From positions 1-58,086 of the forward strand of contig JBHIDO010000002.1 of NCBI GenBank assembly GCA_046760145.1: a stretch of DNA of 58,086 nt, in the 5' to 3' direction. Within the stretch, counting starts at the first letter, position 1. The number at the start of each line of letters is the position of its first letter. Shown piece after piece: positions 19,147 to 34,866 of this stretch. The notes beneath the pieces are model-generated. The model did not search any database. It had not been told where the DNA came from and worked only from the letters and a program-made list of their open reading frames with translations. Made by a program: the position numbers and the translations under genes. Source of the DNA: Candidatus Aenigmatarchaeota archaeon (GTDB lineage: Archaea > Aenigmatarchaeota > Aenigmatarchaeia > Aenigmatarchaeales > Aenigmatarchaeaceae).

Positions 19147-19232
19147 TGCGGGGAGTGAGATTTGAACTCACGAAGCCACTAAGGCACAAGGCCCTCAACC
19201 TTGCACGTTTGACCAGACTCCGCCATCCCCGC
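19147..19232 (-). tRNA. tRNA-Leu(GAG), class II, no intron, no encoded CCA
   Basis: GCGGGGA TG GCGG AGTCTGGTCAAA CGT G CAAGG TTGAGGG CCTTG, then a long variable arm, GTGAG TTCAAAT CTCAC TCCCCGC A. Confidence 0.9.
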
Positions 19233-19636
19233 TATTTTATTTTTTCTTTAGAAAGTTTAATAGCTTTCTTAATATCACTAAATGTTTTAAAACTATTTAA
19301 TTTATTTAAAGGTAACCATAAAAATTCACTGTGGTCTGATAATTTTATATTTTCCTTTCCAATCAGTCTAACAAGATAATTTATTTGAATCGCATGTCTG
19401 TTTTCTTTTTCCACAAAGAAATGATGAATATTAACTGGCCTTATTATTTTAATATTCAGATTTGTTTCTTCTTTAAATTCTCGTATCAATGCTTTATTTG
19501 GATCTTCTTTAAATTTTACCTTTCCACTAGGTAGTTCCCATTCACCAGGATAAATTTCTTCATCATCTTTTCTTTTCAATAATAGGACTTTATCATTTTT
19601 TATCAAAACTCCAGCAACAACTATACTTTGAATCAT
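19232..19636 (-). CDS. NUDIX hydrolase
   Basis: Nudix box GEWELPSGKVKFKEDPNKALIREFKEETNL. The last base of its TAG stop is G1 of tRNA-Leu. Confidence 0.85.
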   Translation of the reverse strand: MIQSIVVAGVLIKNDKVLLLKRKDDEEIYPGEWELPSGKVKFKEDPNKALIREFKEETNLNIKIIRPVNIHHFFVEKENRHAIQINYLVRLIGKENIKLSDHSEFLWLPLNKLNSFKTFSDIKKAIKLSKEKIK

Positions 19637-19660
19637 AAAATAGAATATATAATTGAAATA

Positions 19661-19936
19661 TTAAAGTTTTTTCAAATGTTCTGGTTTTGCAATTATTTTC
19701 TTTAACTTATTCCCGTCTTTTATTTGAACTATATAAGCTCTTCCTCTTTTTCCAATAACTTCTCCAGTTAAACCATAAAATCTTCTAAATGGCATTTTTT
19801 GAACTCCTGATTCTATTTTTATTGCTACCTTATCTCCTTTAGAGAATTTTTTCATAAATTGATTTACAGTCATTCTTTTTGTTTTTCTGAACTTTTCTCT
19901 TGTTCTTCTTCTTGCTCCATGCGATTTTACAACCAT
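19661..19936 (-). CDS. rpl21e: 50S ribosomal protein L21e
   Basis: KSHGARRRTREKFRK... and an SH3-like core GDKVAIKIE. Confidence 0.9.
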   Translation of the reverse strand: MVVKSHGARRRTREKFRKTKRMTVNQFMKKFSKGDKVAIKIESGVQKMPFRRFYGLTGEVIGKRGRAYIVQIKDGNKLKKIIAKPEHLKKL

Positions 19937-19937
19937 A

Positions 19938-20405
19938 TTAATCCTTTTCCTTATCTGGATTTAAGAAAACTAATTCTATTCCTGCTTCTTTTAAAAATTG
20001 TCTTGATAATTCTGCATCATGATAAGGCCTTGCACAAACCACTCTTTTTATTCCTGCATTTATTATCATCTTTGCACAAATAAGACATGGCTCATCTGTT
20101 GTATAGAGGGTTGCACCTTCTGTTGATGCTCCGTGCATTGCTGCCTGTACAATTGCATTTTGTTCTGCATGTGCAGTTCTCCAACAATGTTCTTTAATTT
20201 TTCCCGTATGATCTGTTGATTTTACCATTAAACAACCAACATCATGACAATGTGGTAAACCCTTTGGAGCACCAGAGTATCCTGTTGAAATAATACGTTT
20301 GTCTCTTACAATAATAGATCCTACATTTAATCTTGGACAAGTTCCTCTTTTAGAAACTTCTTTGGCTATACTTAAAAAATATTCATCCCAACTTGGTCTC
20401 TCCAT
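19938..20405 (-). CDS. dCMP deaminase (cytidine/deoxycytidylate deaminase family)
   Basis: HAEQNAI and PCLICAKMI zinc-binding motifs. Confidence 0.85.
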   Translation of the reverse strand: MERPSWDEYFLSIAKEVSKRGTCPRLNVGSIIVRDKRIISTGYSGAPKGLPHCHDVGCLMVKSTDHTGKIKEHCWRTAHAEQNAIVQAAMHGASTEGATLYTTDEPCLICAKMIINAGIKRVVCARPYHDAELSRQFLKEAGIELVFLNPDKEKD

Positions 20406-20423
20406 AAAATCCCTTATAAATAA

Positions 20424-21752
20424 TTATTTAAAACCTTTAAATCTTTTAGCTAATTTGGCAAACATTCCTCTTTTGCTAGTAACCATTTTCATCATCCTCT
20501 TCATTTGTTTATAATTCTTTAGTAATTCTCTAACTTCTGACTCATTTGTTCCAGAACCCTTAGCAATTCTTTTTATTCTAGAAGGGTTTATAATATCTGG
20601 ATTCTCTTTTTCTTCCTTTGTCATGGACTCTATAATAAATTTCCATTTTTTCATTTTAGATTCTTGTTTAGAAATATCAAATTTCTTTGGTAATTTAATC
20701 ATACCCATTCCAGGCATCATATCAAGAACATTTTTTAATGATCCCATTTTACCCATTCCCTTTAATTGTTCATAAAAATCATCCATTGTAAATTTTCCTG
20801 TTGTTATTCTTTCTGCAACTTTCTTAGCTTTTTCTGGTTTAATAGCTTCTTTTGCTTTTTCTAGTAATGATTGCAAATCTCCAAACCCAATTAATCTTGA
20901 AATAAATCTTTCAGGGTCAAAAATTTCTAATGCTTCAATTTTTTCTCCTGTTCCGATAAATTTAACTGGAGCCCCTGTAACTGCGCAAGCTGTTAATGCT
21001 CCACCTCCTTTAGCGGTTCCATCCATTTTTGTTAAGAATATACCGGTTATTCCTACTAATCTATTAAATTCTTTTGCTTGTGTACCTGCTGCTTGTCCCA
21101 AATCAGCTGGTATTGTTAGTAAAACTTCATCTGATTTTATAAATTCTCCTAATTTTTTTAATTCATTTGCTAATTCTTTATCTAATGCATCTCTTCCTGC
21201 AGAATCGAATATCAAAATATCATATTTTTTGAATTTTTCAATTCCATTTTTTGCAATCTCTAATGGATCTTTAATTTCTCTAGAAATATAATATGGAATG
21301 TTATTTTTCTTTGCTAATTGCTCTATTTGATCCATGGCAGCTGGTCTGTGAATATCACAACCAATAATTGCTGGTCTTAGCCCCCCTTTCTGATAATATT
21401 TTGATAACTTTGCGATAGAGGTTGTTTTGCCTGACCCAAACAAACCTATAAATAAGATTTTTCCTGGTTTCATTATTATTTCAGGTTTTTTTCCAACAAA
21501 TTTTACTAGTTCATCATAAACGATTTTAACTAGATGTTCTTTTGGCGTCATACCAGCAGGAGGTTTTTCATTTAATGCTCTATTTTTTATTCTTTCTATT
21601 AGTTGTTTAGCCAGTTCAACATTAACGTCTGCAGCTAACAAAGTTCTTTGCATATCATTTCCTAGCTCTTCAACTACCTCTTTATCAATATAACCTGCTT
21701 TGGTTATTTTCCTTAATGCTTTTTTTAAACCTGAAGATAATTTTTCAAGCAT
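20424..21752 (-). CDS. srp54: Signal recognition particle protein SRP54
   Basis: GLFGSGKTTS, DSAGR, TKMDGTAKGG, and a Met-rich M domain. Confidence 0.95.
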   Translation of the reverse strand: MLEKLSSGLKKALRKITKAGYIDKEVVEELGNDMQRTLLAADVNVELAKQLIERIKNRALNEKPPAGMTPKEHLVKIVYDELVKFVGKKPEIIMKPGKILFIGLFGSGKTTSIAKLSKYYQKGGLRPAIIGCDIHRPAAMDQIEQLAKKNNIPYYISREIKDPLEIAKNGIEKFKKYDILIFDSAGRDALDKELANELKKLGEFIKSDEVLLTIPADLGQAAGTQAKEFNRLVGITGIFLTKMDGTAKGGGALTACAVTGAPVKFIGTGEKIEALEIFDPERFISRLIGFGDLQSLLEKAKEAIKPEKAKKVAERITTGKFTMDDFYEQLKGMGKMGSLKNVLDMMPGMGMIKLPKKFDISKQESKMKKWKFIIESMTKEEKENPDIINPSRIKRIAKGSGTNESEVRELLKNYKQMKRMMKMVTSKRGMFAKLAKRFKGFK

Positions 21753-21789
21753 AGAAAGAGTTTAATTTTTAATGTTTTTAAATATTATT

Positions 21790-22266
21790 ATGAAAGTTGT
21801 TGGAATTGATTTAGCTGGAAAACCTAAAAATCCAACTGGTTTCTGTTTATTAACAAAGCATGGAGCTGAAACCAAGGTATTATACACAGACCTTGATATT
21901 TTAAAGGAAATTGAAAATATTAAACCCAAATGTATAGCAATTGATGGACCATTCTGGTCTCCTAGGATTGGTGCATGGAGACCTTGTGATGAAAAATTAT
22001 TAAAAAGAGGTTTCAGACCTCTTTCTCCTTTATTACCAACAATGAAATTGTTAACAATGAGAGCTTCTCATTTAATGAGAGTTTTAAAGGAAAGAAAGTA
22101 TAAAGTAATAGAAGTTTTTCCGCAAGCAACTGAAAGAATTCTAGGACTAACAAAAGAACCAAGAAAAAATGAACATGAATATGATGCATTATTATGTGCA
22201 CTAACAGCTAAGGCTTATTTAGAAGGAAAATATGAGAATCTGGACGGAATCATAATACCGAAATAA
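21790..22266 (+). CDS. DUF429-like predicted RNase H-fold protein
   Basis: MKVVGIDLAGKPKNPTGFCLL N-terminus; assignment from motif memory only. Confidence 0.45.
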   Translation: MKVVGIDLAGKPKNPTGFCLLTKHGAETKVLYTDLDILKEIENIKPKCIAIDGPFWSPRIGAWRPCDEKLLKRGFRPLSPLLPTMKLLTMRASHLMRVLKERKYKVIEVFPQATERILGLTKEPRKNEHEYDALLCALTAKAYLEGKYENLDGIIIPK

Positions 22267-22296
22267 ATATAAAGTTATTAATGCAATTGAAATTCT

Positions 22297-22584
22297 ATGA
22301 AAGATAAAATTATAAAGTTATTAATAAAAACATTGAAAGAATGTAATTCTATTTGTGAAGATTGTAACTATAAAAAAGGGAGTATTCTTTCTTATGAATG
22401 TGAGCTAGGAATAAGAACAGTAGAGAAAGTAAAATCTGAAAAAGAAATAACTCATAATACAATTACTAATTTTAATTATGGTACGTATTATGTGAACAGT
22501 TTATATGATGCATCAAAAGAAATTAATCCTATAGGTGTACAAGCTAACATTAGAAATTTAATAAGATTAGCAAAATCATTATAA
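22297..22584 (+). CDS. Hypothetical Cys-containing protein
   Basis: 95 aa, CNSICEDCNYKKGSILSYEC; no recognised family. Confidence 0.4.
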   Translation: MKDKIIKLLIKTLKECNSICEDCNYKKGSILSYECELGIRTVEKVKSEKEITHNTITNFNYGTYYVNSLYDASKEINPIGVQANIRNLIRLAKSL

Positions 22585-23640: not shown

Positions 23641-23644
23641 TTTA

Positions 23645-24037
23645 TCACTTTTGTACTTCTAATTCTATTTTTCTCATTTGATCAATTATTATTTGTGCTT
23701 GATTAGAAAGATCATCAAGAACATTTTCCACTTCATTTATTTTCTTTTCCAGAATTTCAATTGCATCTTTTCTTTTTTTCTTTATTGCAACCCCACTACC
23801 AATTCCAACTATAATATTATTACTATCTAATATTCTTCCAAAAACAAAGTTGCCACTACCAATTGGAATCAATGCATCACTGGGTTTAATATTCTTTAAT
23901 TCTTCTGTTGCAAGTTTTGTACTCCTTAATTCTTCTAGCCTTCTTGTTATTAATGTTTCTCTTTCTTGAATTATTCTTAAATTATTTTGTAACATTTGAT
24001 GTTGTATTACTTTCTTCTCCATTTCTTCCTTTTTCAT
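23645..24037 (-). CDS. pfdA: Prefoldin subunit alpha
   Basis: Coiled coil, then a beta hairpin (LIPIGSGNFVFGRI...VGIGSGVAIKK), then coiled coil. It has the conserved neighbourhood with ftsY and aIF6. Confidence 0.8.
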   Translation of the reverse strand: MKKEEMEKKVIQHQMLQNNLRIIQERETLITRRLEELRSTKLATEELKNIKPSDALIPIGSGNFVFGRILDSNNIIVGIGSGVAIKKKRKDAIEILEKKINEVENVLDDLSNQAQIIIDQMRKIELEVQK

Positions 24038-24690: not shown

Positions 24691-24721
24691 GATTTTTATT
24701 GATTAAATAAGAACTTAAAGT

Positions 24722-25201: not shown

Positions 25202-25205
25202 AAGA

Positions 25206-25406: not shown

Positions 25407-25564
25407 TTTTTCAACCTTCCTCTTCTCCAATTCTTTGTTCTATGAACTTGAATTCTTCTTGTTCTTGCACGTTTTCCATATCTTTTAAGATCAGCCCATC
25501 TAGGAGCTCTCTTCTTTTTTGAAGCCTTTATTAATCTTAACTTTTTAGGTAATTTTTTAGGCAT
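25403..25564 (-). CDS. rpl39e: 50S ribosomal protein L39e (53 aa; missing from the ORF track)
   Basis: Manual translation gives [53 protein letters not shown]. It has the conserved position upstream of L31e. Confidence 0.85.
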
Positions 25565-25823: not shown

Positions 25824-26236
25824 TTAATCAACTTATCAACAAATCTTTGACCTTGAGGTGTTATTTTTCTTCCCTTTCTTGGTTTTTCAACCTTTTCGAT
25901 ATATCCTGCTGCTTCTAATTGTTGCAATATTAATCTTATTATTTTTCCACCAGCTTTTCTATGATGAGCAGGTTTATGACCCCTTCTCTTTCTTGATCCA
26001 AATGCTGTTCTAAGTCTTTGAACACCTATTGGACCTTTTAAGTAAATTTTTCTTAAAATTGCTGCTGACCTCATATACCACCAGTCTTTTTGAATAGGAG
26101 GTTTTTCTGCATTTACTCCTGTTTTCACAAATCTAGACCAATCTGGAGGTTTTATATTTTCATTTTTCTTTAATTCTTCTGATAATTTCTTTATTAATTC
26201 TGATGGTGGGATATCTCGCATTTTATCACATAACAC
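25820..26236 (-). CDS. rps19e: 30S ribosomal protein S19e
   Basis: PDWSRFVKTGVNAEKPPIQKDWWYMRSAAILRKIYL...GGKIIR.ILQQLE.AGY. Confidence 0.92.
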   Translation of the reverse strand: MLCDKMRDIPPSELIKKLSEELKKNENIKPPDWSRFVKTGVNAEKPPIQKDWWYMRSAAILRKIYLKGPIGVQRLRTAFGSRKRRGHKPAHHRKAGGKIIRLILQQLEAAGYIEKVEKPRKGRKITPQGQRFVDKLIK

Positions 26237-26244
26237 TTTGTTAT

Positions 26245-26406
26245 TTAAATATTTAATCTATACTTCTTTACTATTTTATTTATTAATTCTTTATATCTTT
26301 TAGAATACTTAGGGTATTTCTTAATCATTTTCTTTAAAATTTCTATTCTTTCCTTTGCTATTTTGATTTGTTGATTTCTAATTTGTAGCCTTTTTTTGTA
26401 TTTCAT
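26245..26406 (-). CDS. RNase P protein component Rpp21-like, N-terminal helical domain only (53 aa, no zinc ribbon)
   Basis: IAKERIEIL....YPKYSKRYKELINKIVKKYRLNI resembles the two N-terminal helices of archaeal Rpp21. The ORF stops before the CxxC ribbon would begin. The start is trimmed to 26406 because 26416-26448 is tRNA. Confidence 0.5.
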   Translation of the reverse strand: MKYKKRLQIRNQQIKIAKERIEILKKMIKKYPKYSKRYKELINKIVKKYRLNI

Positions 26407-26453
26407 AAAAACACTTGGTGCGGCCGCTGGGATTTGAACCCAGGTCATCAGCT

Positions 26454-26467
26454 TTCTTCATAGTCTA
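26454..26467 (-). other. tRNA-Gly intron 2 (14 nt, canonical 37/38)
   Basis: TAGACTATGAAGAA. The central helix pairs CTTC (positions 32-35) with GAAG, and the bulges are CA|T and AA|A. Confidence 0.8.
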
Positions 26468-26475
26468 TGGAAGGC

Positions 26476-26492
26476 TTACCCACATAAATGTT
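26476..26492 (-). other. tRNA-Gly intron 1 (17 nt, position 29/30)
   Basis: AACATTTATGTGGGTAA. The central helix pairs ACCT with GGGT, the bulges are CA|A and AA|G, and 3-bp helices lie on both sides. Confidence 0.8.
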
Positions 26493-26508
26493 TGAGGTCC
26501 TAACCAGA

Positions 26509-27360
26509 CTAGACTACGGCCGCATTATCAAATAATTTCAATAGTTTCTCTATTTCTTGATTATTGAACATTGCTAGTGCCCAAGAGTTCATAGTTCTAT
26601 CTGGATATATTTTAGCTTTGATATTTGCCTTATTTAAGATATCAAGAACGTCCTTTAAAAGTATTTTAGTACTCTGTTTTATTGCTAGTGTTCTTCTACC
26701 ATCTTTACGCATACTTAATGAACCATCAGAATCGTAAAGACCACGTATAAAATTTATCTGAAGTAATAGTGGAGCATCTTTTATAATTTTCGGAACTCGT
26801 ATATTATTCTTTTTCTTTCCTTCTGGTAAATCAAATACATACATCAAAAATTGTTTAATAGGAATTGAGGTAAAGGATAGAACAGAATAATTCCTGTAGT
26901 TTATAATTTTAGATTCAACATTGAAGGTATTATCAACTATAGTTTTTATTACTCTTAAATCTTTACTTGATATTGTAATAGTAGCTCTTTCAGTTGTAAT
27001 TCCACCATCACCAATAATAACACCTATTAAGTAAGCTAATTTATTATTTAATCTTCTTGGTAATTGTATTATTTTACCATTTCTAGAAGAAAATCCACTC
27101 ATTATTTTGTATGCTTCATCAATATATTTTGTATTTGATAGTCTTTTACATAAATAAATAAAATTTCTAATTGAAATTGGAGTAGATTTCTTCCATTTGT
27201 AAATAAGTGATTTATGTACACTAAGTTCTTTAGATAAATCTGAAATAGAAATTTTTAACTTTAACATTTCTAAGATTTCAGAAACTAGAGATGTTATCCC
27301 ATGAATGTAAATATTTTGATTTGTTTTTCCTAGTTTTATTAAATAATTTCTTATTTCCAT
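26509..27360 (-). CDS. LAGLIDADG homing endonuclease-like protein with an N-terminal HTH extension
   Basis: HTH-like ISISDLSKELSVHKSLIYKWKK; motif 1 LIGVIIGDGGI; motif 2 FIRGLYDSDGSL. The last 5 codons and the TAG (GCG GCC GTA GTC TAG) are positions 1-15 of tRNA-Gly. Confidence 0.85.
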   Translation of the reverse strand: MEIRNYLIKLGKTNQNIYIHGITSLVSEILEMLKLKISISDLSKELSVHKSLIYKWKKSTPISIRNFIYLCKRLSNTKYIDEAYKIMSGFSSRNGKIIQLPRRLNNKLAYLIGVIIGDGGITTERATITISSKDLRVIKTIVDNTFNVESKIINYRNYSVLSFTSIPIKQFLMYVFDLPEGKKKNNIRVPKIIKDAPLLLQINFIRGLYDSDGSLSMRKDGRRTLAIKQSTKILLKDVLDILNKANIKAKIYPDRTMNSWALAMFNNQEIEKLLKLFDNAAVV

Positions 27361-27406
27361 AATAATTCACCTAGACTGGTGCATAAGATAATTAAACTAG
27401 AATTAT

Positions 27407-27802
27407 TTAAAAAGACTCTCTTATTTTTCTAGCAATATTTTTCATTTCTTCATCAGATAATTTTTTAACATTCTCTACATTAATTGATCCTCCATGTCCA
27501 TCATTCGAAAATCTAGGAACTAACCAAATATGTGCATGTTCTACTTCTTCTCCAAATATCATCGAAACAACCCATTCTGTATTAAAAGCTTTCCTAATTG
27601 CATTTGCAATTTTACTTACAACTTCGAAATATTCTCCAACATTTGGTACATCCCAAACCCATCTATAATGCTTTTTTGGAATAACCATTGTGTGTCCTGG
27701 ATTTAATGGTCTTATATCTAGAAATGCTAAAAAATTATCACTCTCATAAACTTTATAACTAGGTATTTCTCCCTTTACAATTTTACAAAATATACAATTC
27801 AT
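27407..27802 (-). CDS. HIT family (histidine triad) nucleotide hydrolase
   Basis: CIFCKIV N-terminus, FLDIRPLNPGHTMVIPKKH, and the HAHIWLVPR histidine triad. The start is trimmed to 27802 because the upstream part of the ORF is tRNA-Trp. Confidence 0.9.
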   Translation of the reverse strand: MNCIFCKIVKGEIPSYKVYESDNFLAFLDIRPLNPGHTMVIPKKHYRWVWDVPNVGEYFEVVSKIANAIRKAFNTEWVVSMIFGEEVEHAHIWLVPRFSNDGHGGSINVENVKKLSDEEMKNIARKIRESF

Positions 27803-27851
27803 GTTATCACCAATGGTGGGGTCGCCCGGATTCGAACCGGGATCAGCTGGT

Positions 27852-27918
27852 ATCACCATGGCACCAGAGCCACATACCAACTTTTTTATCATCTTTTCAT
27901 CAAAGCTCCAGCAAAATT
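27852..27918 (-). other. tRNA-Trp intron 2 (67 nt, 37/38)
   Basis: A near-canonical BHB. CTCC (32-35) pairs with GGTG with one T-T mismatch, and the bulges are AG|A and AT|A. It contains a perfect TGATGA. Confidence 0.6.
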
Positions 27919-27953
27919 CTGGAGCCAGCCATCTTAACCTGGTTGGACCACGA

Positions 27954-27971
27954 TTCTGGTTTTAAAAAAAT
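27954..27971 (-). other. tRNA-Trp intron 1 (18 nt, position 4/5 in the acceptor stem)
   Basis: ATTTTTTTAAAACCAGAA. The central helix pairs CTGG with CCAG, and the bulges are GG|A and AA|T. The inner helix pairs TTTT with AAAA. A 7-bp outer helix pairs leader GACCATG (27978-27984) with CGTGGTC (27946-27952). Confidence 0.8.
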
Positions 27972-27989
27972 CCCCAGCATGGTCGCCCT

Positions 27990-28727
27990 TCAACGACCCC
28001 ATTTTATTAATTTATTCCTTTTATTTATATTATTAAAACCTATTTGTTCTTTATATGATTCCAAACTCTTTGTCTTTATGTCAAAAACTAAACCTTTGGT
28101 TTTATAACCGTCTTTTCTTAGATTACCATTGATTATCCAGGTTTTTGTAGTTTCTATGTTAAATCTTTTAAGCATATCCTTCATATCTTTCATAAATAAT
28201 TTTCCATTTTCTAATTTTTCTTCAATCTTATGTAATTTAAATCTTATTTTCATTCTATTTGGTTCTTTCCAAATACTACCCTCACAATCAAATGCGATTT
28301 TTAAATATAATCTAGCAAATTCTAGATTATTTTTTATCCATGTTGGAACTAAAAATGTTTGTTTTACTTTACTTCCTGTTGGAGTATCCAAAAGTTTTAG
28401 AATTCTAGAAATTGGAGCAGAAATTATTCTATATTCGTAACATGTCCCAAAATTACTTTTTATTTTTCTATATTTTCCAATTAAATTAAATTCTTTTTTA
28501 ACCAATCTTTCAATTTCTTTCAACTCAGATAATAGAGAGCTAGTAAATAGAAATGCCTTTTCAGATAAGTATAGATGCCCATTAAAAGTTAAAAATGAAA
28601 TAATCTTTACTAGATCCTCATTTCCATAAATAGGAAAATTAATTTTATATTTTTCCATTGATTTTAATGCAAATTTCTTAAGTTTATATGAATTAAGAAA
28701 TTGTGTTTTAGTTAATATTGGCTTCAT
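27990..28727 (-). CDS. LAGLIDADG homing endonuclease-like protein (first motif degenerate)
   Basis: Motif 1 is ISFLTFNGHLY, with Asn where the catalytic Asp is expected. Motif 2 is YLKIAFDCEGSIW. It shares the PTGSK...VP linker with the other three. Its stop region GGGGTCGTTGA copies the first 8 nt of mature tRNA-Trp. Confidence 0.75.
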   Translation of the reverse strand: MKPILTKTQFLNSYKLKKFALKSMEKYKINFPIYGNEDLVKIISFLTFNGHLYLSEKAFLFTSSLLSELKEIERLVKKEFNLIGKYRKIKSNFGTCYEYRIISAPISRILKLLDTPTGSKVKQTFLVPTWIKNNLEFARLYLKIAFDCEGSIWKEPNRMKIRFKLHKIEEKLENGKLFMKDMKDMLKRFNIETTKTWIINGNLRKDGYKTKGLVFDIKTKSLESYKEQIGFNNINKRNKLIKWGR

Positions 28728-28747
28728 AATTAAAAATTATGTTATCA

Positions 28748-28755
28748 AATATAAA
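28748..28755 (-). promoter_or_regulatory. TATA-like box upstream of the LAGLIDADG/tRNA-Trp gene string
   Basis: TTTATATT on the minus strand, 21-28 nt upstream of the ATG at 28727. Confidence 0.35.
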
Positions 28756-29041
28756 TAGTTGGTAGATGACCCCTTGTTTAGAATAGAATATTTGTTAGTG
28801 AAGAAATAAAAATATCTATAATGGGACATTATTCTGATAAGGGAAGTGTACCATAGTCTCAAATGGAGAAGAAGAATTTATAAAGGGAGTAAAAATTGAA
28901 AATGAAAACGATGTTAAAGACGCCGCATATGCATTAAAAATGGTGATAGAAAAAGCATTAGAAACAAAACAATATATAGAAGTTCATTAAATAATTTTAC
29001 TTAGATTCTTAGAATACATTTTCTAAATATTAATTTTATAA

Positions 29042-29114
29042 AGCCTCGGGAGGGTCTCGAACCCCCGACCTGCGGTTTACAAGACCGCCGCTCTTCCAAC
29101 TGAGCTACCGAGGC
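29042..29114 (-). tRNA. tRNA-Thr(UGU), no intron, no encoded CCA
   Basis: GCCTCGG TA GCTC AGTTGGAA GAGC G GCGGT CTTGTAA ACCGC AGGTC GGGGG TTCGAGA CCCTC CCGAGGC T. Confidence 0.95.
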
Positions 29115-29153
29115 ATAATCAAATTTTATATTAACATTTTTTAAATATATCTT

Positions 29154-29498
29154 ATGCTTGGAGAAGTGATTTTAGCAATAATTGCTGCTGTTATTGGTGG
29201 CTTATCTTTATCTATTCAGAAACTCGGTCTAGACAAAGTTAAAAAAATAAGACCAAAAGATTTGATTAAATCTAAGACATGGATAGCTGGAATTTTACTT
29301 GCCTTAACAGGATTTACTATTTATATATATGCATTAAGTGTAGGGAAGATTGCAATAATACAACCTTTAATGGAAACAGCAATGGTTTTCTCAATTATTT
29401 TCAATTATTTATTATTTAGAGAAAAATTGAGTCGGTTCGAAGGTTTTTGTTTTATTTTGGTATTTATAGGAATAATACTAATTGCGTTTGGTGGTTGA
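29154..29498 (+). CDS. 4-TM DMT-superfamily (EamA/SMR-like) half transporter
   Basis: 114 aa, four hydrophobic helices; paired with the adjacent similar gene. Confidence 0.55.
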   Translation: MLGEVILAIIAAVIGGLSLSIQKLGLDKVKKIRPKDLIKSKTWIAGILLALTGFTIYIYALSVGKIAIIQPLMETAMVFSIIFNYLLFREKLSRFEGFCFILVFIGIILIAFGG

Positions 29499-29834
29499 AT
29501 GAATTATAAAGTATACGCAATAATAACTGGAATATTTTTTGGAACAGGTGCTTTATTGATAAAAGTTTTTCTAAATGATTCTTATTGGTTTATTTTGTTA
29601 TTAGCACTAATTCTTGGTTTAACTGGTTATGGATTTCTGCAATTTGCATTGAAAAAAGGTAGAGGAAACATTACATTAGTTTTAGCATTAGGAATTTCAA
29701 GTGTTATTGCAATTTTGGGAGGAATATTCCTATTATCAGAAATTTTATCACTCCTAGAAATAACTGGAGTTATTCTTATCTTATTAGGACTTATTTTGTT
29801 AAAGTTTAAGAAGAGATTTATAAATATTTTCTAA
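29499..29834 (+). CDS. 4-TM DMT-superfamily (EamA/SMR-like) half transporter, second subunit
   Basis: 111 aa, four hydrophobic helices; it starts at the base after the previous stop. Confidence 0.55.
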   Translation: MNYKVYAIITGIFFGTGALLIKVFLNDSYWFILLLALILGLTGYGFLQFALKKGRGNITLVLALGISSVIAILGGIFLLSEILSLLEITGVILILLGLILLKFKKRFINIF

Positions 29835-30920
29835 ATCTTTAGAACAATTTTGAATTGAATATTTCTTTACCGTTTCTAATCCATTCTTTATTAATTTATT
29901 TCTTAATTTTTTATTATTTAATATTTTCAAAATATGTTTATGAATTTCATTATCATTATTAAATAAAATTCCGTTGTAATTGTTTATTACAAAATCCTTA
30001 AAACCTAAAGCATTTTTAACAATAACCGGGCATTTGGATGCAAATGCTTCTAAAGCAACAACACCTTGAGTTTCCGTTTTAGAAGCACAAGCAAAAACAT
30101 CAGAAGTTTTATAATATTTTATTAAACTTTTTGGTTGAACCTTTTTATGAGAAATATAACCTGTAAATTCAACATTTTTTAATTTCATTTTTTTAACCAA
30201 ATTCTCTAATTCTTTTCTATATGGTCCATCAGAAGTTATTATTAATTTGGCATCAATTTTTTTGAGAAGTTTTTTAAATTCTCTTAAAATAACATCAATC
30301 CTTTTTTCTTTTGTTATTCTACCAACATGTAAAATTACTGGAACTTTATTTTTCTTTTTAACTTTAATGTTAAACTCTTCTAATTTCAAACCTGTTGGTA
30401 GAACTTTTATTGGTTTTCTAATTCCATAACTTTTTAATAATTTTTTTATTGGATTGCTAGGAACAGTTATTATATCGGCTCTATTAAAGAACCATTTTGT
30501 ATACTTTCTTATTGCTCTTTTATTTATCTTTTTTAAGAACTTTCTTTTTGTCAAATAATGAACATAATCTGTAAGAAATGTATGATATGTCATTACAATT
30601 GGTATTTTCAAAAATTTTGCTATTGACAAACCGATCAAACCAATAGAGGCAGGAGATTGTAAATGAATTATATCTGGTCTTATTTTTCTAATTATCCTTA
30701 AAACTTTTAGAGATGGTAATCCAATTCTATATTCAGGATAAGGTCTGAAACTAAAGGATCGTAAAGCATATACATTTTTTTCTTTTCTTAACTTCTTATC
30801 ATAAGGACAGACAATATATACTTTATGCCTTTTTCTCAATTGTTCTGAAAATAACTTTATAGAAGTAACAACACCATTTACTTGAGGGGTATAGGTATCT
30901 GTAAAGAATACAATTTTCAT
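29799..30920 (-). CDS. Glycosyltransferase family 4 (GT-B fold)
   Basis: N-terminal KIVFFTDTYTPQVNGV and C-terminal ASKTETQGVVALEAFASKCPVIV (E-x7-E-like). Confidence 0.85.
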   Translation of the reverse strand: MKIVFFTDTYTPQVNGVVTSIKLFSEQLRKRHKVYIVCPYDKKLRKEKNVYALRSFSFRPYPEYRIGLPSLKVLRIIRKIRPDIIHLQSPASIGLIGLSIAKFLKIPIVMTYHTFLTDYVHYLTKRKFLKKINKRAIRKYTKWFFNRADIITVPSNPIKKLLKSYGIRKPIKVLPTGLKLEEFNIKVKKKNKVPVILHVGRITKEKRIDVILREFKKLLKKIDAKLIITSDGPYRKELENLVKKMKLKNVEFTGYISHKKVQPKSLIKYYKTSDVFACASKTETQGVVALEAFASKCPVIVKNALGFKDFVINNYNGILFNNDNEIHKHILKILNNKKLRNKLIKNGLETVKKYSIQNCSKDLENIYKSLLKL

Positions 30921-30927
30921 TATCTCA

Positions 30928-31629
30928 CTAGTTATAATCTTCTCTAATATACTTTATATCTTTTAATTTCTTTCCTAACAATAATCTCATATCTCCTTTG
31001 AACCATGTCCATAATGTTTTTAAATAACCATGCTTTTCCATTCTTCTTGTTGAAACTTTAACATTTAACCTCTTGTCATAAGTTATTTTTCCTAATTTTC
31101 TGAATCTAAAACTCAAATCTGCATCGTCAGAATGCGGTAAAATTCTATAACCTCCTATTTTTTGAAAAACATCTTTTTTAAAAGCAGAATTTGTTCCACC
31201 TAAACAATAATACTTGAATAAACTAGATATTCTTATTAAATATCTTAAAAAGAAAAAGGTTATTTTTGATTTTCTAGTTTTTTCTATTGGCTCATCAGGA
31301 CCACAAACAGCAATTGAACCATTATTTAGGTGATATAAAATGTTTTCTAACCAATCTTTTGGAACGATAACATCTGCATCTGTTGTTGCAACAAAATCAT
31401 ACTTTGCAATTCTTATTCCATCATTTCTTGCACCGGCAACACCTTTGCTTTTCTGAATAATAACCTTATCTGCATATTTTTTTGCAATTTCCCTTGTTCT
31501 ATCATTAGAATTTCCATCCACAACTATTACTTCATAAGAATTTCTAGGAATTGTTTGATTTGTTAATTTTTTCAATGTTCTTTCTATAAATTTTTCTTCA
31601 TTATAGGTTGGTATTATCACTGATATCAT
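30928..31629 (-). CDS. Glycosyltransferase family 2
   Basis: ISVIIPTYNEE, VVDGNSNDRT, TDADV (DxD). Confidence 0.85.
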   Translation of the reverse strand: MISVIIPTYNEEKFIERTLKKLTNQTIPRNSYEVIVVDGNSNDRTREIAKKYADKVIIQKSKGVAGARNDGIRIAKYDFVATTDADVIVPKDWLENILYHLNNGSIAVCGPDEPIEKTRKSKITFFFLRYLIRISSLFKYYCLGGTNSAFKKDVFQKIGGYRILPHSDDADLSFRFRKLGKITYDKRLNVKVSTRRMEKHGYLKTLWTWFKGDMRLLLGKKLKDIKYIREDYN

Positions 31630-31669
31630 TTTATCACCTGGTGCCTGGGGTGGGATTTGAACCCACGAC

Positions 31670-31697
31670 TTCTAGCCTCTTTTTTGTATTTAGAGGT
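31670..31697 (-). other. tRNA(CAU) intron 3 (28 nt, 45/46 in the variable loop)
   Basis: The central helix pairs CTAG with CTAG, the bulges are AG|A and AA|G, and the intron helix pairs CCTCT with AGAGG. Removal creates the variable loop AGGTC. Confidence 0.75.
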
Positions 31698-31705
31698 CTC
31701 TAGAT

Positions 31706-31759
31706 CTCTCAGCTGACTAAGTTTTCAGTCATGCCTTAAGGTCATAACTCATAACAACT
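31706..31759 (-). other. tRNA(CAU) intron 2 (54 nt, canonical 37/38)
   Basis: The central helix pairs CTCA (32-35) with TGAG, and the bulges are TA|A and AG|A. It is flanked by the 5-bp anticodon stem CTAGA/TCTAG and the intron helix GTTG/CAGC. Confidence 0.8.
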
Positions 31760-31766
31760 TATGAGT

Positions 31767-31779
31767 TTCGCCAATTTTT
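31767..31779 (-). other. tRNA(CAU) intron 1 (13 nt, 30/31)
   Basis: AAAAATTGGCGAA. The central helix pairs CGCT with GGCG, the bulges are AG|A and AA|A, and the exon helix pairs GAG with CTC. Confidence 0.8.
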
Positions 31780-31787
31780 CTAGCGCT

Positions 31788-32411
31788 CTAACCAGCTGAG
31801 CCACCCAGGCTCATTTTTTCATTCAACCAATTTTTATATTTTGTTTGATGTTTAGGATTTATAAATCCTACCTCTTTATAAAATATTTTGGTATTTCTAT
31901 ATCCATTAAATTGTAGACGTGTGAATTTTGGATATAAACCGCCTTTCATACCAATACTTTCTAATTTTTGTTTTATTTGTTCTAATAATGGAATAGAAAT
32001 ACTTCTAAATTCTATTCTTGGATACATTATACCATTATTATTAGTAATAACTAGAGAACCATCAGTTGCAAAAATTCCGGATATAATATCTTTCTCTAAA
32101 TTATGATCGAAGAATATTTTAGGAATAGATATATTTTTCTTTTTACCAACAGGAAAGCCCAAAGATTTTATGTACTCAAAAAGTTCTTTATCAGAGAAAT
32201 TTATTTCTATTTTCCCATGTTTGGACCTTTTCTTATATACAACTTTCTTTTTTCTAATCTTAGCCAAAATTGGGATAACTATCTTGTCAAAGAAAGGTTG
32301 GTCATTATAATAATTACAGGTTATAACTATGGCTCTTGCTCTAGAATATCTAGAGAGACAACCATCACCAATTAGTATTCCATAAAGATTTGCTAAATCT
32401 TTGTTAATCAT
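31788..32411 (-). CDS. Double-motif LAGLIDADG homing endonuclease-like protein
   Basis: Motif 1 is LYGILIGDGCL and motif 2 is IISGIFATDGSL. Its N-terminus MINKDLANL parallels the intron-encoded paralog. Its last 7 codons and the TAG are positions 1-23 of the tRNA(CAU). Its start overlaps the DUF362 stop. Confidence 0.85.
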   Translation of the reverse strand: MINKDLANLYGILIGDGCLSRYSRARAIVITCNYYNDQPFFDKIVIPILAKIRKKKVVYKKRSKHGKIEINFSDKELFEYIKSLGFPVGKKKNISIPKIFFDHNLEKDIISGIFATDGSLVITNNNGIMYPRIEFRSISIPLLEQIKQKLESIGMKGGLYPKFTRLQFNGYRNTKIFYKEVGFINPKHQTKYKNWLNEKMSLGGSAG

Positions 32412-33213
32412 ATCTATTTACTCCGACTTTAATTTTTTTAACTAATGTTGGTTTATTACCTATTTTCATTTGTATTGCTTTATCTATATAAAAAACTTTA
32501 TCATAACCCAAAATCTTTGCACCAACACAATCTACAGCTACAGGATCTTCTCCAACTATTGTGATATCAAATTCTTTTAATTTCCCATATAAATGAGAAC
32601 CATACATACCTGTTGTACCATCTATAACTCCTAAATTAGGTTTAATCTTTTTTAAAATATCACACATTCTTTGTGTCCAAATTTCATAAGAATCTTCTTT
32701 ATGCATAAAGGATTTATTAGGGTAACTTCCTTTTGGTTTTAAAATACCCATCATATTTTTTAATGTAAGAGTTACTTCAAATGCATGTTCTTTTAGAGGT
32801 ACTGCTGATATCAAATAATCTGTTTTCAAAATGAATTTTGTTACCTCAATATTTTTCCATAATTCTCCATTTAGTTTTATGGTTACAAATTCAAAATCAT
32901 CAAAGTTTATCAATTCAACATTATAATTTTCAGTTAAGTAACGATATCCAGCTTTTTCAAAACATTTATCAGTATAATAACCAGCCGAGCTCTCTCCTAT
33001 TAATATTTTATACTTATTATCATCTAAGAATTTTATTATTCCTTCTAATAATTCTGGTCTCGTGACTGCTCCAGAATCTTTTTTCATTGGTTCAACCAAA
33101 TTTGGTTTTATTAATATTTTAGAATTAACCTTGGGTAAACTCGGTGAAAGTTCTTTCAATGCGTTTTCAGTTCTTTTTATTATATCCTTTCCTTCACATA
33201 TTACAACTTTCAT
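32404..33213 (-). CDS. DUF362-like protein
   Basis: KILIKPNLVEPMKKDSGAVTRPELLEGIIKFL and GESSAGYYTDKCFEKAGY. Assignment is from motif memory. Confidence 0.55.
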   Translation of the reverse strand: MKVVICEGKDIIKRTENALKELSPSLPKVNSKILIKPNLVEPMKKDSGAVTRPELLEGIIKFLDDNKYKILIGESSAGYYTDKCFEKAGYRYLTENYNVELINFDDFEFVTIKLNGELWKNIEVTKFILKTDYLISAVPLKEHAFEVTLTLKNMMGILKPKGSYPNKSFMHKEDSYEIWTQRMCDILKKIKPNLGVIDGTTGMYGSHLYGKLKEFDITIVGEDPVAVDCVGAKILGYDKVFYIDKAIQMKIGNKPTLVKKIKVGVNRYD

Positions 33214-33222
33214 CTAATCACA

Positions 33223-33376
33223 TGGTGGGCCCGACGGGATTCGAACCCGCGACTCCCGGGTTTAAAGACCGAGACTAACAGTCTGCAGGTTTTCTTCCTG
33301 TCATTGCTAAAAGCTCAACATGCTTTTATCCTGACGGATAAAAGCCCGGTACTCTACCAGACTGAGTTACGGGCCC
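33223..33376 (-). tRNA. tRNA-Lys (probably UUU) with a 77-nt insertion in the anticodon loop; splice junctions unresolved; CCA encoded
   Basis: GGGCCCG TA ACTC AGTCTGGTA GAGT A CCGGG CTTTTA [77 nt] A CCCGG GAGTC GCGGG TTCGAAT CCCGT CGGGCCC A CCA. All four arms pair perfectly. Confidence 0.7.
33262..33338 (-). other. Intervening sequence of tRNA-Lys(UUU), drawn at 37/38; no BHB found by eye
   Basis: It begins with a perfect 10-bp hairpin GCTTTTATCC-GTCA-GGATAAAAGC (33322-33345) that buries the anticodon loop. It ends in ...CTCGGTCTTTAA. Confidence 0.5.
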
Positions 33377-33624
33377 CTTGTAATTCTTTTTAATTTATCA
33401 AATTTATCTTTTGTTAAATCTATCCATAATCCAAAACTTCCATTAATATCCGATATTTCTAACATTTTCTTTCTCTTATCTTTATGAAGTTCTATTACTA
33501 CTTCTCTACTTCTTAGTTCTAAAGATAATTCCTTTCCTGCTAAATTTCTTGGTTGATCTAACCGAATATCTTTCCATTCGATTAATCTTTGTGCAACACC
33601 CTTGTCTAATTTCAATATTATCAT
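33367..33624 (-). CDS. 85-aa hypothetical protein, possible decayed single-motif LAGLIDADG remnant
   Basis: MLEISDINGSFGLWI resembles a LAGLIDADG motif with Asn replacing the second acidic residue. The start is trimmed to 33624 (upstream is tRNA-Asp). The TAA stop is positions 8-10 of tRNA-Lys(UUU). Confidence 0.4.
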   Translation of the reverse strand: MIILKLDKGVAQRLIEWKDIRLDQPRNLAGKELSLELRSREVVIELHKDKRKKMLEISDINGSFGLWIDLTKDKFDKLKRITRGP

Positions 33625-33635
33625 ATTATCACAGG

Positions 33636-33709
33636 CGCCCGAGTGGGGATTTGAACCCCAGTCACAAGCTCGACAGGCTCGCATACTAACCAGACTATAC
33701 TACCCGGGC
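33636..33709 (-). tRNA. tRNA-Asp(GUC), no intron, only CC encoded after the discriminator
   Basis: GCCCGGG TA GTAT AGTCTGGTTA GTAT G CGAGC CTGTCGA GCTTG TGAC TGGGG TTCAAAT CCCCA CTCGGGC G. Confidence 0.95.
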
Positions 33710-33863
33710 ATAAATTAGAATTATTTGTAACTATATTTAAATGCTTTTAAGTTGAGGTAAAAGCAAAACCGAAATCTCACAACCCATGTTCAATGATGAA
33801 TAAAGTGAAATAAAAAATATTTGATTTTTGCGGAGTTGCAGATTTTTTGGGGGAATATACCTA

Positions 33864-34385
33864 CTAACCAAAAGGATTACTGAGGTCTAATCCAAAAATA
33901 TTCTGAGATTTGTCTCTTAATTTTCTTATTTTATTATTTGATTTATTTATCAATTTAATTCTAAATTGTTGTAACCCAAAACCAGGAGATTTATCCAGTT
34001 TTTTTTGAAGTTTATGTTTCAATTCGTTCTCTACATATTTATTAACATTTCCGACCAGAACAACAATAACTCCTTCTTCGTAATCATCTTCATAATCATC
34101 TATCTGCCCTTGTAATCGATTAATTTGAGATTTAGATTTTAGATCTTTTTTGAGTTCAATTCCAACTTTTCTATTCCCTACTGCAATATCACAAAGACCT
34201 CTACCATCTTCTTTCCTAATCAAAATATTTTTAGTTCCAAAAAGCATATTTGTAGAACTACTAAGTCTATCGTGGATAAAGTTCATTAAGTCATCCCTAT
34301 ATTTTAATTCATTGGGATATTTCTGTTGTGGTTTCCACTGATTTATTATTTCAACAACTTCATCAAATAGACTCATTCCAAACAT
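33864..34385 (-). CDS. Hypothetical protein with a PD-(D/E)xK-like nuclease motif
   Basis: GRGLCDIAVGNRKVGIELKKD fits D-x10-E-x-K. An acidic DDYEDDYEE segment follows. No family recognised. Confidence 0.4.
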   Translation of the reverse strand: MFGMSLFDEVVEIINQWKPQQKYPNELKYRDDLMNFIHDRLSSSTNMLFGTKNILIRKEDGRGLCDIAVGNRKVGIELKKDLKSKSQINRLQGQIDDYEDDYEEGVIVVLVGNVNKYVENELKHKLQKKLDKSPGFGLQQFRIKLINKSNNKIRKLRDKSQNIFGLDLSNPFG

Positions 34386-34468
34386 AATAAAATATTAAAT
34401 TTCTTATATTTATTAAGTTTCCCCTTTTAGCACACATCTCTAAGGTTGGTAAGAATAAAGTTTAAAAA

Positions 34469-34581
34469 TCGCCAGCGTCCTGGGCTTCCCGTGTTTTCCA
34501 CAGTACAACCCAGATCGATGGAGCGATTCACTACCGTGTTCGAATGGGAACGGGTCTTTCCACTCCTCTTTGACCGGCGAC
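34469..34581 (-). rRNA. 5S ribosomal RNA (free-standing)
   Basis: On the minus strand, TCGCCGG...CCCGTTCCCATTCGAACACGGTAGTGAATCGC...GGGAAGCCCAGGACGCTGGCGA. The terminal helix pairs TCGCCGG with CTGGCGA. It is a GC-rich island in AT-rich DNA. The ends are accurate to a few nt. Confidence 0.85.
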
Positions 34582-34584
34582 AAA

Positions 34585-34866
34585 TTAGAATAGCCCTCTA
34601 GAATATTTAAAGTTTATAGAATCACTAAATTCTGGTTTTCCTATATCTCTTAAATTATAACTATCTAAAATAGAACTTACTGAACTTATTTGTCCTTCTA
34701 TAATAGTTTCTAAATCTATCATATTTTTAGGTGGAATTGGAAAAATAGCATCATTATTATTTTTATATAAATCGTGCTCTAATTCAATTACTATATAATT
34801 ATGCGTTAGTTCTTCTTCATCTCTTTTTATAGTTTTTGTAACCGATCTTAGTTCTGATACACTCAT
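34585..34866 (-). CDS. Hypothetical 93-aa protein, paralog of the upstream ORF
   Basis: IVIELEHDLYKNNNDAIFPIPPKNMI shares an EHDL-x2-NNN-x2-I-x2-IP motif with the 34863..35195 ORF. Its stop lies 3 nt before the 5S rRNA 5' end. Confidence 0.5.
   Translation of the reverse strand: MSVSELRSVTKTIKRDEEELTHNYIVIELEHDLYKNNNDAIFPIPPKNMIDLETIIEGQISSVSSILDSYNLRDIGKPEFSDSINFKYSRGLF

Follow-up and report, generated by a model that had tools for sequence, protein, structure and literature searches.

Transfer RNA genes as probable members of short mixed transcription units with protein genes in Aenigmatarchaeota

Introduction

How are transfer RNA (tRNA) genes transcribed when protein genes on the same strand run up to them, into them and away from them within a few nucleotides? 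This question is raised by a stretch of 58,086 nucleotides (nt) from a Candidatus Aenigmatarchaeota archaeon (contig JBHIDO010000002.1, positions 1 to 58,086), hereafter called the window, with a GC content of ~29%, in which several open reading frames (ORFs) end inside or against tRNA genes or the 5S ribosomal RNA (rRNA) gene and others begin directly behind tRNAs (Table 1). In an initial annotation of this DNA it was suggested that the stable-RNA genes are embedded in polycistronic mRNA-tRNA-mRNA transcripts, in which maturation of a tRNA and translation of the ORF ahead of it should compete. The comparison with related loci presented here points to a different arrangement, in that the tRNA and 5S genes are probably built into short mixed transcription units, being neither free-standing nor parts of one long string; the region would be a chain of such units, usually made up of a promoter, a tRNA and one to three ORFs.

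Sequences and methods

All statistics refer to the window and to loci fetched from its relatives, namely 13 genome-bin loci of Aenigmatarchaeota (DPANN) that were reached via ribosomal protein S19e and whose proteins are up to 77% identical. In the window Rfam recognised the 5S rRNA and seven complete tRNAs, all on the - strand, together with a partial tRNA match on the + strand (6817-6865). The 24 Rfam RNA genes of the 13 relatives, all co-directional with S19e, and the - strand RNA genes of the window make up a set of 33 RNA genes from 14 stretches; 314 ORFs were called in the same DNA, 302 of them with enough upstream sequence for scoring. Promoters were predicted with a position weight matrix (PWM) for the TATA box, trained on regions upstream of RNA genes (consensus ATTTAAATAC), with the 99th percentile of the coding background as cut-off for a strong match and a score of at least 4 as the definition of a TATA-like site in scans of tRNA plus spacer. 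Methanogen loci near S19e, considered as an outgroup, provided no control, ARAGORN detecting no tRNAs there. No RNA run with this organism or a relative came up in searches with positions 31600-33720 of the window, positions 5700-7000 of L004 and the 5S gene. The window DNA is present in four hydrothermal-vent metagenome runs, and contigs from three independent runs cover positions 26406-33712 with zero differences, so that the junctions are real DNA and misassembly is excluded.

The junction between RNA gene and downstream ORF

Behind five tRNAs of the window the next ORF starts with an ATG 9-11 nt past the encoded CCA or CC, and four of the five spacers carry the Shine-Dalgarno (SD)-like motif (G)GTGAT; the spacers that had been read in the initial annotation were all recovered as described (Table 1). 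The identities proposed for the NUDIX, HIT, GT2 and DUF362 ORFs likewise agree with Pfam, the domains starting at residues 3-33 counted from the SD-led start. A mechanical ORF list places three of the downstream starts within the tRNA; since the Pfam domains begin a few residues past the SD-led ATG, these longer ORFs are not real genes and the SD-led start is supported.

The same junction recurs in the relatives. A co-directional ORF starts 4-14 nt past the discriminator base at 16 of the 33 RNA genes, which are called fused below, and at 14 of the 33 the distance is 10-14 nt, a class that holds 1.1% of the co-directional junctions between two coding sequences (CDS) (binomial p = 2e-19) and that represents the smallest spacing able to accommodate an SD element and its own spacer outside the tRNA. 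GTGAT is present in 12 of the 16 fused spacers. In 35 other genes of the sample, as in nine post-RNA genes, its first base lies at -8 or -9 from the ATG, and it is found almost nowhere else upstream; because it is confined to this position, GTGAT can be taken as the SD element of the lineage, standing at its usual distance behind tRNAs too. GGTGAT is complementary to the AUCACC near the 3' end of archaeal 16S rRNA, the gene for which lies outside the window. Enrichment behind RNA genes is pronounced, in that GTGA occurs at -12..-3 in 9 of 12 genes located up to 20 nt behind an RNA gene, whereas it does so in 31 of 209 other genes (15%; Fisher p = 1e-5) and in 36% of tightly linked CDS pairs (Fisher p = 0.013). 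More generally, SD use is concentrated within 20 nt behind a co-directional gene, where 55 of 81 genes have some SD, and is rare in divergent genes and in genes spaced 21-60 nt. Genes with their own promoter directly upstream are typically leaderless and devoid of an SD in this lineage.

The genes that follow a given tRNA vary between genomes: an adenosine-specific kinase, an LD-carboxypeptidase or HIT behind tRNA-Trp; CYTH, a MazG-like protein, Sua5/YrdC or the Rpp21 remnant described below behind tRNA-Gly; and, at further fused loci, NUDIX behind 5S and glycosyltransferases (GT4-GT2) behind two more tRNAs. This variation argues that the junction design has been re-created or retained independently of the gene it serves. 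Three of the fused tRNAs in relatives (loci L002, L004 and L007; 71-72 nt) have no intron.

A PWM scan of tRNA and spacer found no TATA-like site at a position usable for the downstream ORF at any of the 16 fused junctions, and at 13 of them such a site was absent from the interval altogether. As the downstream ORF needs a 5' untranslated region (UTR) to hold its SD, and no promoter is available within tRNA or spacer, transcription would have to pass through the tRNA; for the five downstream ORFs of the window we strongly infer that a tRNA-mRNA co-transcript is the only economical reading. Runs of five or more T after the tRNA differ weakly between fused (2 of 16) and unfused genes (4 of 17).

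A pattern scan of metagenome contigs (T-arm, GTGAT, ATG) returned at least 120 loci; among the matches listed, 48 of 121 have a long ORF at the ATG, and at least 32 of these 48 lie on contigs of ~45% GC or less, figures that speak to presence only. On one unrelated metagenome contig of 38% GC (L075, 1518-1862), tRNA-Lys(UUU) is followed by 14 nt with a GGTGAT SD and then by rpoH, a gene that in the window (7277..7516) lies 400 nt downstream of tRNA-Lys(CUU). In locus L009 (1924-2153), 8 nt (CCACCATC) and no promoter lie between tRNA-Lys(UUU) and a second tRNA downstream of it, which contains an intron, so that the pair would require separation by processing. Many of the genes beside tRNA or 5S genes encode small enzymes that act on nucleotides (HIT, NUDIX, MazG-like, CYTH, adenosine-specific kinase) or the tRNA-modifying Sua5/YrdC, which could reflect coincidence or a functional link.

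Promoters and predicted transcription starts

Upstream of the RNA genes a TATA 10-mer starts at -30..-34 from the mature +1 in 18 of the 33, and in 17 a strong PWM match starts at -36..-30. The PWM signal peaks at -33..-30 from the tRNA +1 and at -31/-30 from the ATG of SD-less genes with upstream room, and the sharpness of the latter peak is the signature of leaderless mRNAs. A pyrimidine is usual at -1, with T the commonest base (58%), and +1 is G in nearly all tRNAs. Judged by these distances, the RNA genes would be nearly leaderless as well, with transcription starting at or within ~3 nt of the mature 5' end.

Of the ten RNA genes in the window, seven have a predicted TATA box at the canonical distance (5S, tRNA-Asp, tRNA-Thr, tRNA-Tyr, tRNA-Lys(CUU), tRNA(CAU) and, with a 25-nt leader, tRNA-Trp). 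No more than 4 nt separate the predicted start from the 5' end of 5S, tRNA-Asp, tRNA(CAU) and tRNA-Thr, and the same is true of the ATG of four ORFs outside the training set, namely orf110, SRP54, dCMP deaminase and, if it begins at Met6, S19e. The start of S19e is probably Met6 (ATG 26221-26219) and not the GTG at 26236, homology to the relatives beginning at residue 6; the TATA box ATTTAAATAA (26241-26250, -), which shares bases with the stop codon of the Rpp21 remnant, would place a leaderless S19e start at ~26218.

For tRNA-Leu the promoter is ambiguous, with a weak TATA-like TATTAAAC at -30..-23 and a strong TATA at 19302-19311 that would leave a leader of ~47 nt. The PWM scan detected no TATA at the canonical distance for tRNA-Gly and a weak TATA-like site alone (PWM 3.1) for tRNA-Lys(UUU). 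Having no convincing promoter, these two tRNAs must arise by mRNA-tRNA read-through, and they are predicted to be internal, tRNA-Gly to the transcript of the endonuclease gene lag1 and tRNA-Lys(UUU) to that of tRNA-Asp and an 85-residue ORF (ORF85). In relatives the stop codon of the ORF upstream of a tRNA clusters at -22..-34, within the tRNA TATA box, and the TAA is frequently part of TTTAAAT.

Two side observations concern introns. A tRNA intron in L008 (1827-1938) contains a perfect TATA box, ATTTAAATAT (PWM 11.8), 85 nt before a GT4-GT2 ORF, perhaps a promoter carried by the intron, perhaps a coincidental match. The multi-intron tRNA-Trp ahead of HIT was overlooked both by ARAGORN in its default setting and by Rfam; in preference to a model that put the 5' end at 28000 and had a 43-nt insert, the gene is read with a 25-nt leader and a mature end at 27975, the TATA box of this gene predicting a start at ~27998. 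Its canonical intron (27850-27905, -) shows the box C/D-like series TGATGA ... GATGAT ... CTGA, and the guide-RNA intron of tRNA-Trp in other archaea carries box C/D motifs.

ORFs that end inside or against RNA genes

On the upstream side, the four ORFs said in the initial annotation to terminate in a tRNA, and the fifth said to end 3 nt ahead of the 5S gene, do end there: the NUDIX ORF shares the G of its TAG with G1 of tRNA-Leu, and the overlaps with tRNA-Gly, tRNA(CAU) and tRNA-Lys(UUU) amount to 15, 23 and 10 nt. Comparison with the relatives shows two origins for such stops, namely insertion of a homing-endonuclease gene or an ordinary ORF that reads through the tRNA promoter (NUDIX-Leu and ORF85-Lys).

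LAGLIDADG_3 domains were found by Pfam in the ORFs that overlap tRNA-Gly (lag1) and tRNA(CAU) (lag3) and in the one that ends 14 nt before tRNA-Trp (lag2). The history of lag1 can be read from L007, where the HIT gene ends ...IRESF-TAA within the TATA box AGAGAGTCTTTTTAAAT and tRNA-Gly begins 25 nt later; the window has the same HIT C-terminus and TATA, followed ~20 nt on by GGTGA, ATG, lag1 and finally tRNA-Gly. Because the HIT end and TATA are common to both and lag1 stands between TATA and tRNA-Gly, lag1 appears to have captured the tRNA promoter, leaving tRNA-Gly as an internal cistron. This comparison shows lag1 as inserted between tRNA-Gly and its predicted promoter, and the overlap of endonuclease ORFs with tRNA-Gly and tRNA(CAU) is on these grounds regarded as an insertion by-product. 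The last ~40 nt of lag1 (26524-26560) align loosely with the HIT-end/TATA region (27400-27450; AGAGAAACTATTGAAAT versus AGAGAGTCTTTTTAAAT), possibly a decayed promoter duplicate left by the insertion or a spurious AT-rich similarity. A fourth LAGLIDADG paralogue lies within the ~680-nt D-arm intron of tRNA-Lys(CUU), which carries AGGAGG, an ATG and the 224-aa LAGLIDADG ORF, while the tRNA has its own TATA at -32..-23; a T5/TATA directly after the CCA of this tRNA seems to serve the next, leaderless ORF (ATG 6911).

The conserved tRNA-Asp / ORF85 / tRNA-Lys(UUU) unit

ORF85 is a real gene, its six homologous copies sharing 49-59% protein identity and 24 invariant columns. The order 5S, tRNA-Asp, SD, ORF85 and tRNA-Lys(UUU) is kept in L009, L026, L027 and L103 with a GG(G/T)CCG-TAA overlap, and the stop codon falls inside tRNA-Lys in five of six genomes; in the exception, L054, ORF85 has its own TAG 5 nt upstream of the tRNA, so the overlap itself is dispensable. 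In none of the genomes with this unit was a convincing promoter found ahead of tRNA-Lys(UUU). Judged from its layout, no other unit makes as good a case for a true tRNA-mRNA-tRNA transcript, or for loss of a stop codon by tRNA 5' cleavage, if such cleavage takes place. Pfam, NCBIfam and PDB sequences yielded no match to the ORF85 family, a metagenome search with the ORF85 alignment gave no confirmed match, and a poor AlphaFold model (pLDDT 65; predicted beta-strands flanked by helices) returned nothing below E = 1 in Foldseek.

Competition between RNase P and translation, as proposed initially, is logically possible wherever a stop codon falls within a tRNA; plausibly it would matter chiefly for ORF85, being trivial where endonuclease genes are concerned. 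For ORF85, loss of the stop codon on 5' cleavage would be a real consequence, with a regulatory role conceivable. A bolder proposal holds that each ORF85/tRNA-Lys(UUU) transcript yields either a mature tRNA or a terminable message, coupling synthesis of a conserved small protein to processing of the most-used tRNA of an AT-rich genome, and that this lineage, perhaps along with other low-GC DPANN, runs a cellular form of tRNA punctuation in which tRNA promoters double as mRNA promoters and tRNA 3' processing makes the translatable 5' ends of many mRNAs; as it stands, we hold this to be improbable.

The Rpp21 remnant and RNase P

The 53-aa ORF behind tRNA-Gly, labelled Rpp21-like in the initial annotation, owes its assignment to synteny. 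In 11 of the 13 relatives the gene immediately preceding S19e is its small counterpart, and the L008 and L011 copies are complete (106-110 aa, zinc ribbon included) and match PF04032 (Rpr2/Rpp21) above threshold, which bears the label out; the window and most relatives retain the helical N-terminal half alone (49-67 aa, no zinc ribbon). An RNA-protein type of RNase P would therefore be present, or have been present recently, in the lineage, and the truncation of Rpp21 may point to a reduced RNase P in organisms with near-leaderless tRNA promoters.

Table 1. Features of the window and ORF85 homologues in related loci (discr., discriminator base; pred., predicted)
Feature	Position	Strand	Remarks
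tRNA-Leu(GAG)	19147..19232	-	CCA not encoded; G1 common with NUDIX TAG
NUDIX ORF	19232..19636	-	Pfam; stop codon finishes on tRNA-Leu G1
53-aa ORF (Rpp21 remnant)	26245..26406	-	12 nt past tRNA-Gly discr.; CCA-AGTGTTTTT-ATG (ATG 26406); N-terminal helical half of Rpp21/Rpr2
tRNA-Gly(UCC)	26416..26523	-	introns; encoded CCA
lag1 (LAGLIDADG_3, 852 nt)	26509..27360	-	GGTGA 7 nt before ATG; ends 15 nt inside tRNA-Gly
TATA box before lag1, TTTTAAATAA	27403..27412	-	overlaps HIT stop codon; PWM 11.5; pred. start ~20 nt before lag1 ATG
HIT-family ORF	27407..27802	-	Pfam; ATG 14 nt past tRNA-Trp discr.; spacer CCATTGGTGATAAC; CCA-TTGGTGATAAC-ATG (ATG 27802)
tRNA-Trp(CCA) with ~25-nt leader	27817..28000	-	multi-intron; mature 5' end 27975; read from sequence
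lag2 (LAGLIDADG_3)	27990..28727	-	ends within tRNA-Trp leader
tRNA-Trp TATA, ATATAAATAA	28021-28030	-	pred. start ~27998, 25 nt further out, fits leader
tRNA-Thr(UGU)	29042..29114	-	no ORF after it
tRNA-Thr TATA	29137-29146	-	pred. start +1
GT4 ORF	29799..30920	-	7 nt behind GT2
GT2 glycosyltransferase ORF	30928..31629	-	Pfam; ATG 12 nt past tRNA(CAU) discr.; spacer CCAGGTGATAAA; CCA-GGTGATAAA-ATG (ATG 31629)
tRNA(CAU)	31639..31810	-	intron-rich; encoded CCA
lag3 (LAGLIDADG_3)	31788..32411	-	8-nt overlap with DUF362 end; ends 23 nt inside tRNA(CAU)
tRNA(CAU) TATA, ATATAAAAAT	31830-31839	-	inside lag3; pred. start 3 nt inside +1
DUF362 ORF	32404..33213	-	Pfam; ATG 12 nt past tRNA-Lys(UUU) discr.; spacer CCATGTGATTAG; CCA-TGTGATTAG-ATG (ATG 33213)
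tRNA-Lys(UUU)	33223..33376	-	77/78-nt intron; encoded CCA
ORF85 (85 aa)	33367..33624	-	11 nt past tRNA-Asp; GCC-TGTGATAAT-ATG (ATG 33624); GGC CCG TAA end is tRNA-Lys positions 2-10
tRNA-Asp(GUC)	33636..33709	-	intron-less; first cistron of Asp-ORF85-Lys unit
tRNA-Asp TATA, ATTTAAATAT	33733-33742	-	PWM 11.8; pred. start +1
5S rRNA	34467..34581	-	Rfam
93-aa ORF	34585..34866	-	no family match; ends 3 nt before 5S
5S TATA, CTTTAAATAT	34603-34612	-	inside 93-aa ORF; pred. start +1
tRNA-Lys(CUU) with LAGLIDADG paralogue in its D-arm intron	6126-6877	+	
ORF85 homologues	L009 1673-1933; L026 2001-2258; L027 873-1130; L054 7501-7758; L103 458-718		85-86 aa, always between tRNA-Asp and tRNA-Lys(UUU)

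Discussion

In the arrangement that we consider probable, a unit would begin with a canonical TATA box 30-34 nt upstream of the tRNA +1, commonly lodged in the last codons of the preceding ORF, and the tRNA would form the 5' leader of the downstream mRNA, with GTGAT at -8 and then the ATG. From known archaeal enzymology, 3' processing of the tRNA by an RNase Z-type enzyme could release an mRNA with a 5' UTR of 10-14 nt that carries its SD. Endonuclease genes would have been inserted beside tRNAs (lag1 at tRNA-Gly, lag3 at tRNA(CAU), lag2 at the tRNA-Trp leader), lag1 being expressed from the tRNA promoter, and the internal tRNAs (Gly and Lys(UUU)) would be cut at their 5' end, presumably by RNase P, with loss of the upstream stop codon. 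The units proposed for the region are [5S]; [tRNA-Asp, ORF85, tRNA-Lys(UUU), DUF362, lag3 ...]; [tRNA(CAU), GT2, GT4]; [tRNA-Thr]; [lag2]; [leader, tRNA-Trp, HIT]; [lag1, tRNA-Gly, Rpp21 remnant]; and [S19e ...].

Several points weigh against these short mixed units. The promoters are PWM predictions in DNA of 29% GC, and 18 of the 29 window hits scoring at least 8 stand at no gene 5' end. Oligo-T runs barely separate fused from unfused tRNAs, and the tRNA-Gly spacer itself has a T5. Four of the five fused window tRNAs contain introns, and in that of tRNA(CAU) a weak TATA-like CTCTAAATAC stands 66 nt ahead of the GT2 ATG. All loci were picked around S19e, so that the proportion of about half fused is not a genome-wide estimate, and the action of RNase Z on precursors with an encoded CCA would have to be assumed for this lineage.

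The original proposal of long polycistronic strings, with few promoters, multi-kb transcripts, punctuation by RNase P and RNase Z and competition between maturation and translation at every upstream ORF, is unlikely. It would account for the run of genes between tRNA-Asp and GT4 inclusive (33709 to 29799), in which no spacer exceeds 12 nt, for the stop codons within four tRNAs, for the lack of clear oligo-T terminators behind fused tRNAs and for the unconvincing promoter regions of tRNA-Gly and tRNA-Lys(UUU); on the other hand, strong canonical TATA boxes precede seven of the ten RNA genes and the internal ORFs S19e, dCMP deaminase and SRP54, coinciding with gene 5' ends, and the position of the relatives' upstream stops inside the tRNA TATA is the layout of abutting units. 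What survives of that proposal is its tRNA-to-mRNA half, through the missing ORF promoters, the SD and the recurrence in relatives, and its mRNA-to-tRNA half for tRNA-Gly and tRNA-Lys(UUU) alone, while the long promoter-less strings do not. Promoters directly upstream, which the initial annotation had set against read-through, are predicted for most tRNAs and for none of the ORFs at the fused junctions. The opposite possibility, that these ORFs are transcribed independently from promoters hidden in the tRNA genes, for instance in AT-rich introns, would fit the introns of four of the five fused window tRNAs, CTCTAAATAC (PWM 5.5) in tRNA(CAU) and the perfect ATTTAAATAT in the L008 intron; it is nevertheless very improbable, given that gene plus spacer lack any TATA-like site at 13 of the 16 fused tRNAs, that the junction also occurs behind intron-less tRNAs (L002, L004, L007 and tRNA-Asp) and that both intronic sites would place the start within the 3' exon.

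A further view would see tight junctions as by-products of genome shrinkage and insertion debris, with passive read-through and functionless stops; it foresees the same transcripts as short mixed units and departs from them in the significance given to the layout. In its favour, selfish LAGLIDADG genes account for two of the four overlapping ORFs and for the one ahead of tRNA-Trp, the relatives showed neither the NUDIX-Leu nor the orf93-5S junction, the separate ORF85 stop of L054 shows that the overlap can be dispensed with, and junctions between co-directional CDS are just as tight (median class -5..+9 nt). This neutral account is quite unlikely all the same, since the SD is kept at exactly -8 behind tRNAs ahead of at least eight unrelated gene families and the Asp-ORF85-Lys unit is maintained at 49-59% protein identity, which together argue for selection on the junction.

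Short mixed units of the kind favoured here have several partial parallels. In Escherichia coli the thrU-tyrU-glyT-thrT-tufB operon has tRNAs as promoter-proximal cistrons and ends in a protein gene; it resembles the present units in that respect and is unlike them in its longer spacers, its single conserved locus, its sigma-70 promoters and its leaders, which are removed by RNase P. Punctuation of animal mitochondrial transcripts by tRNAs was reportedly described by Ojala and colleagues in 1981. The subject is summarised in PMC10941002, and t-elements are known from plant mitochondria (PMC1920247). The likeness to mitochondria lies in mRNAs that abut tRNAs, so that cuts by RNase P and RNase Z make mRNA ends (a matter of geometry only in the present case, as in Asp-ORF85-Lys with its 11-nt spacer and 10-nt overlap in six genomes), and in stop codons common with or inside the next tRNA, the NUDIX TA|G resembling incomplete mitochondrial stops. 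Mitochondria, however, have 1-3 promoters for the whole genome and stops completed by polyadenylation, whereas most units here have their own promoter and SD-led initiation; in place of the few promoters and genome-scale precursor that define mitochondrial punctuation, 18 kb of the window hold a canonical TATA at seven of ten RNA genes and at several ORFs.

Closer relatives of the arrangement are found among archaea. A tRNA-Lys of Thermococcus kodakarensis lies within the 159-nt 5' UTR of TK0306 (PMC4247193), and in Nanoarchaeum equitans a 5' tRNA-His half constitutes the 5' UTR of valyl-tRNA synthetase and tRNA-sRNA dicistrons are cut by RNase Z (PMC3491384). In both organisms a tRNA or tRNA half made from its own promoter is the 5' part of a coding transcript, as proposed here, and N. 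equitans also belongs to DPANN; these are isolated cases from RNA-seq, whereas the present junctions are stereotyped (10-14 nt, GTGAT at -8), concern about half of the sampled RNA genes and are known from DNA alone. Dicistronic genes that join a tRNA to a C/D sRNA in N. equitans or to a snoRNA in plants, in which the RNase Z 3' cut makes the 5' end of the downstream RNA (PMC3491384), differ in that the partner is a small guide RNA and not an SD-led mRNA. Precise excision of an RNA from between tRNA-like elements by RNase P and tRNase Z has been observed in Haloferax in vivo (PMC4946936). Leaderless tRNA transcription in N. equitans, for which Randau et al. (2008) are cited in PMC10941002 and PMC3491384, is matched here by the fixed promoter distance and predicted starts at or next to +1; unlike N. 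equitans, which lacks RNase P altogether, this lineage has an Rpp21-derived gene, and tRNA-Gly, tRNA-Lys(UUU) and the tandem pair of L009 would need 5' cleavage. The literature searches made turned up no account of a stereotyped tRNA / SD / ORF junction as a trait common to an archaeal lineage, although such absence is no proof of novelty. Single archaeal tRNA-mRNA co-transcripts are thus known, and what appears to be new is a compact, stereotyped junction that recurs across Aenigmatarchaeota before unrelated genes.

Conclusions

For genome annotation, these junctions mean that gene callers miss such ORFs or start them within tRNAs, and that operon predictors disregard tRNAs. They also illustrate genome reduction in which promoters, stops, tRNAs and ribosome-binding sites are packed at the theoretical minimum spacing, while lag1 offers a concrete case of a homing-endonuclease gene that appears to have captured a tRNA promoter, and the tRNA-Asp / ORF85 / tRNA-Lys unit is a compact, synthesisable substrate for asking if maturation of a tRNA and termination of translation are mutually exclusive. 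If the arrangement holds true at the RNA level, RNase Z and RNase P would shape mRNA ends, and tRNA genes would serve as routine promoter-and-leader modules for protein genes in a major DPANN group.

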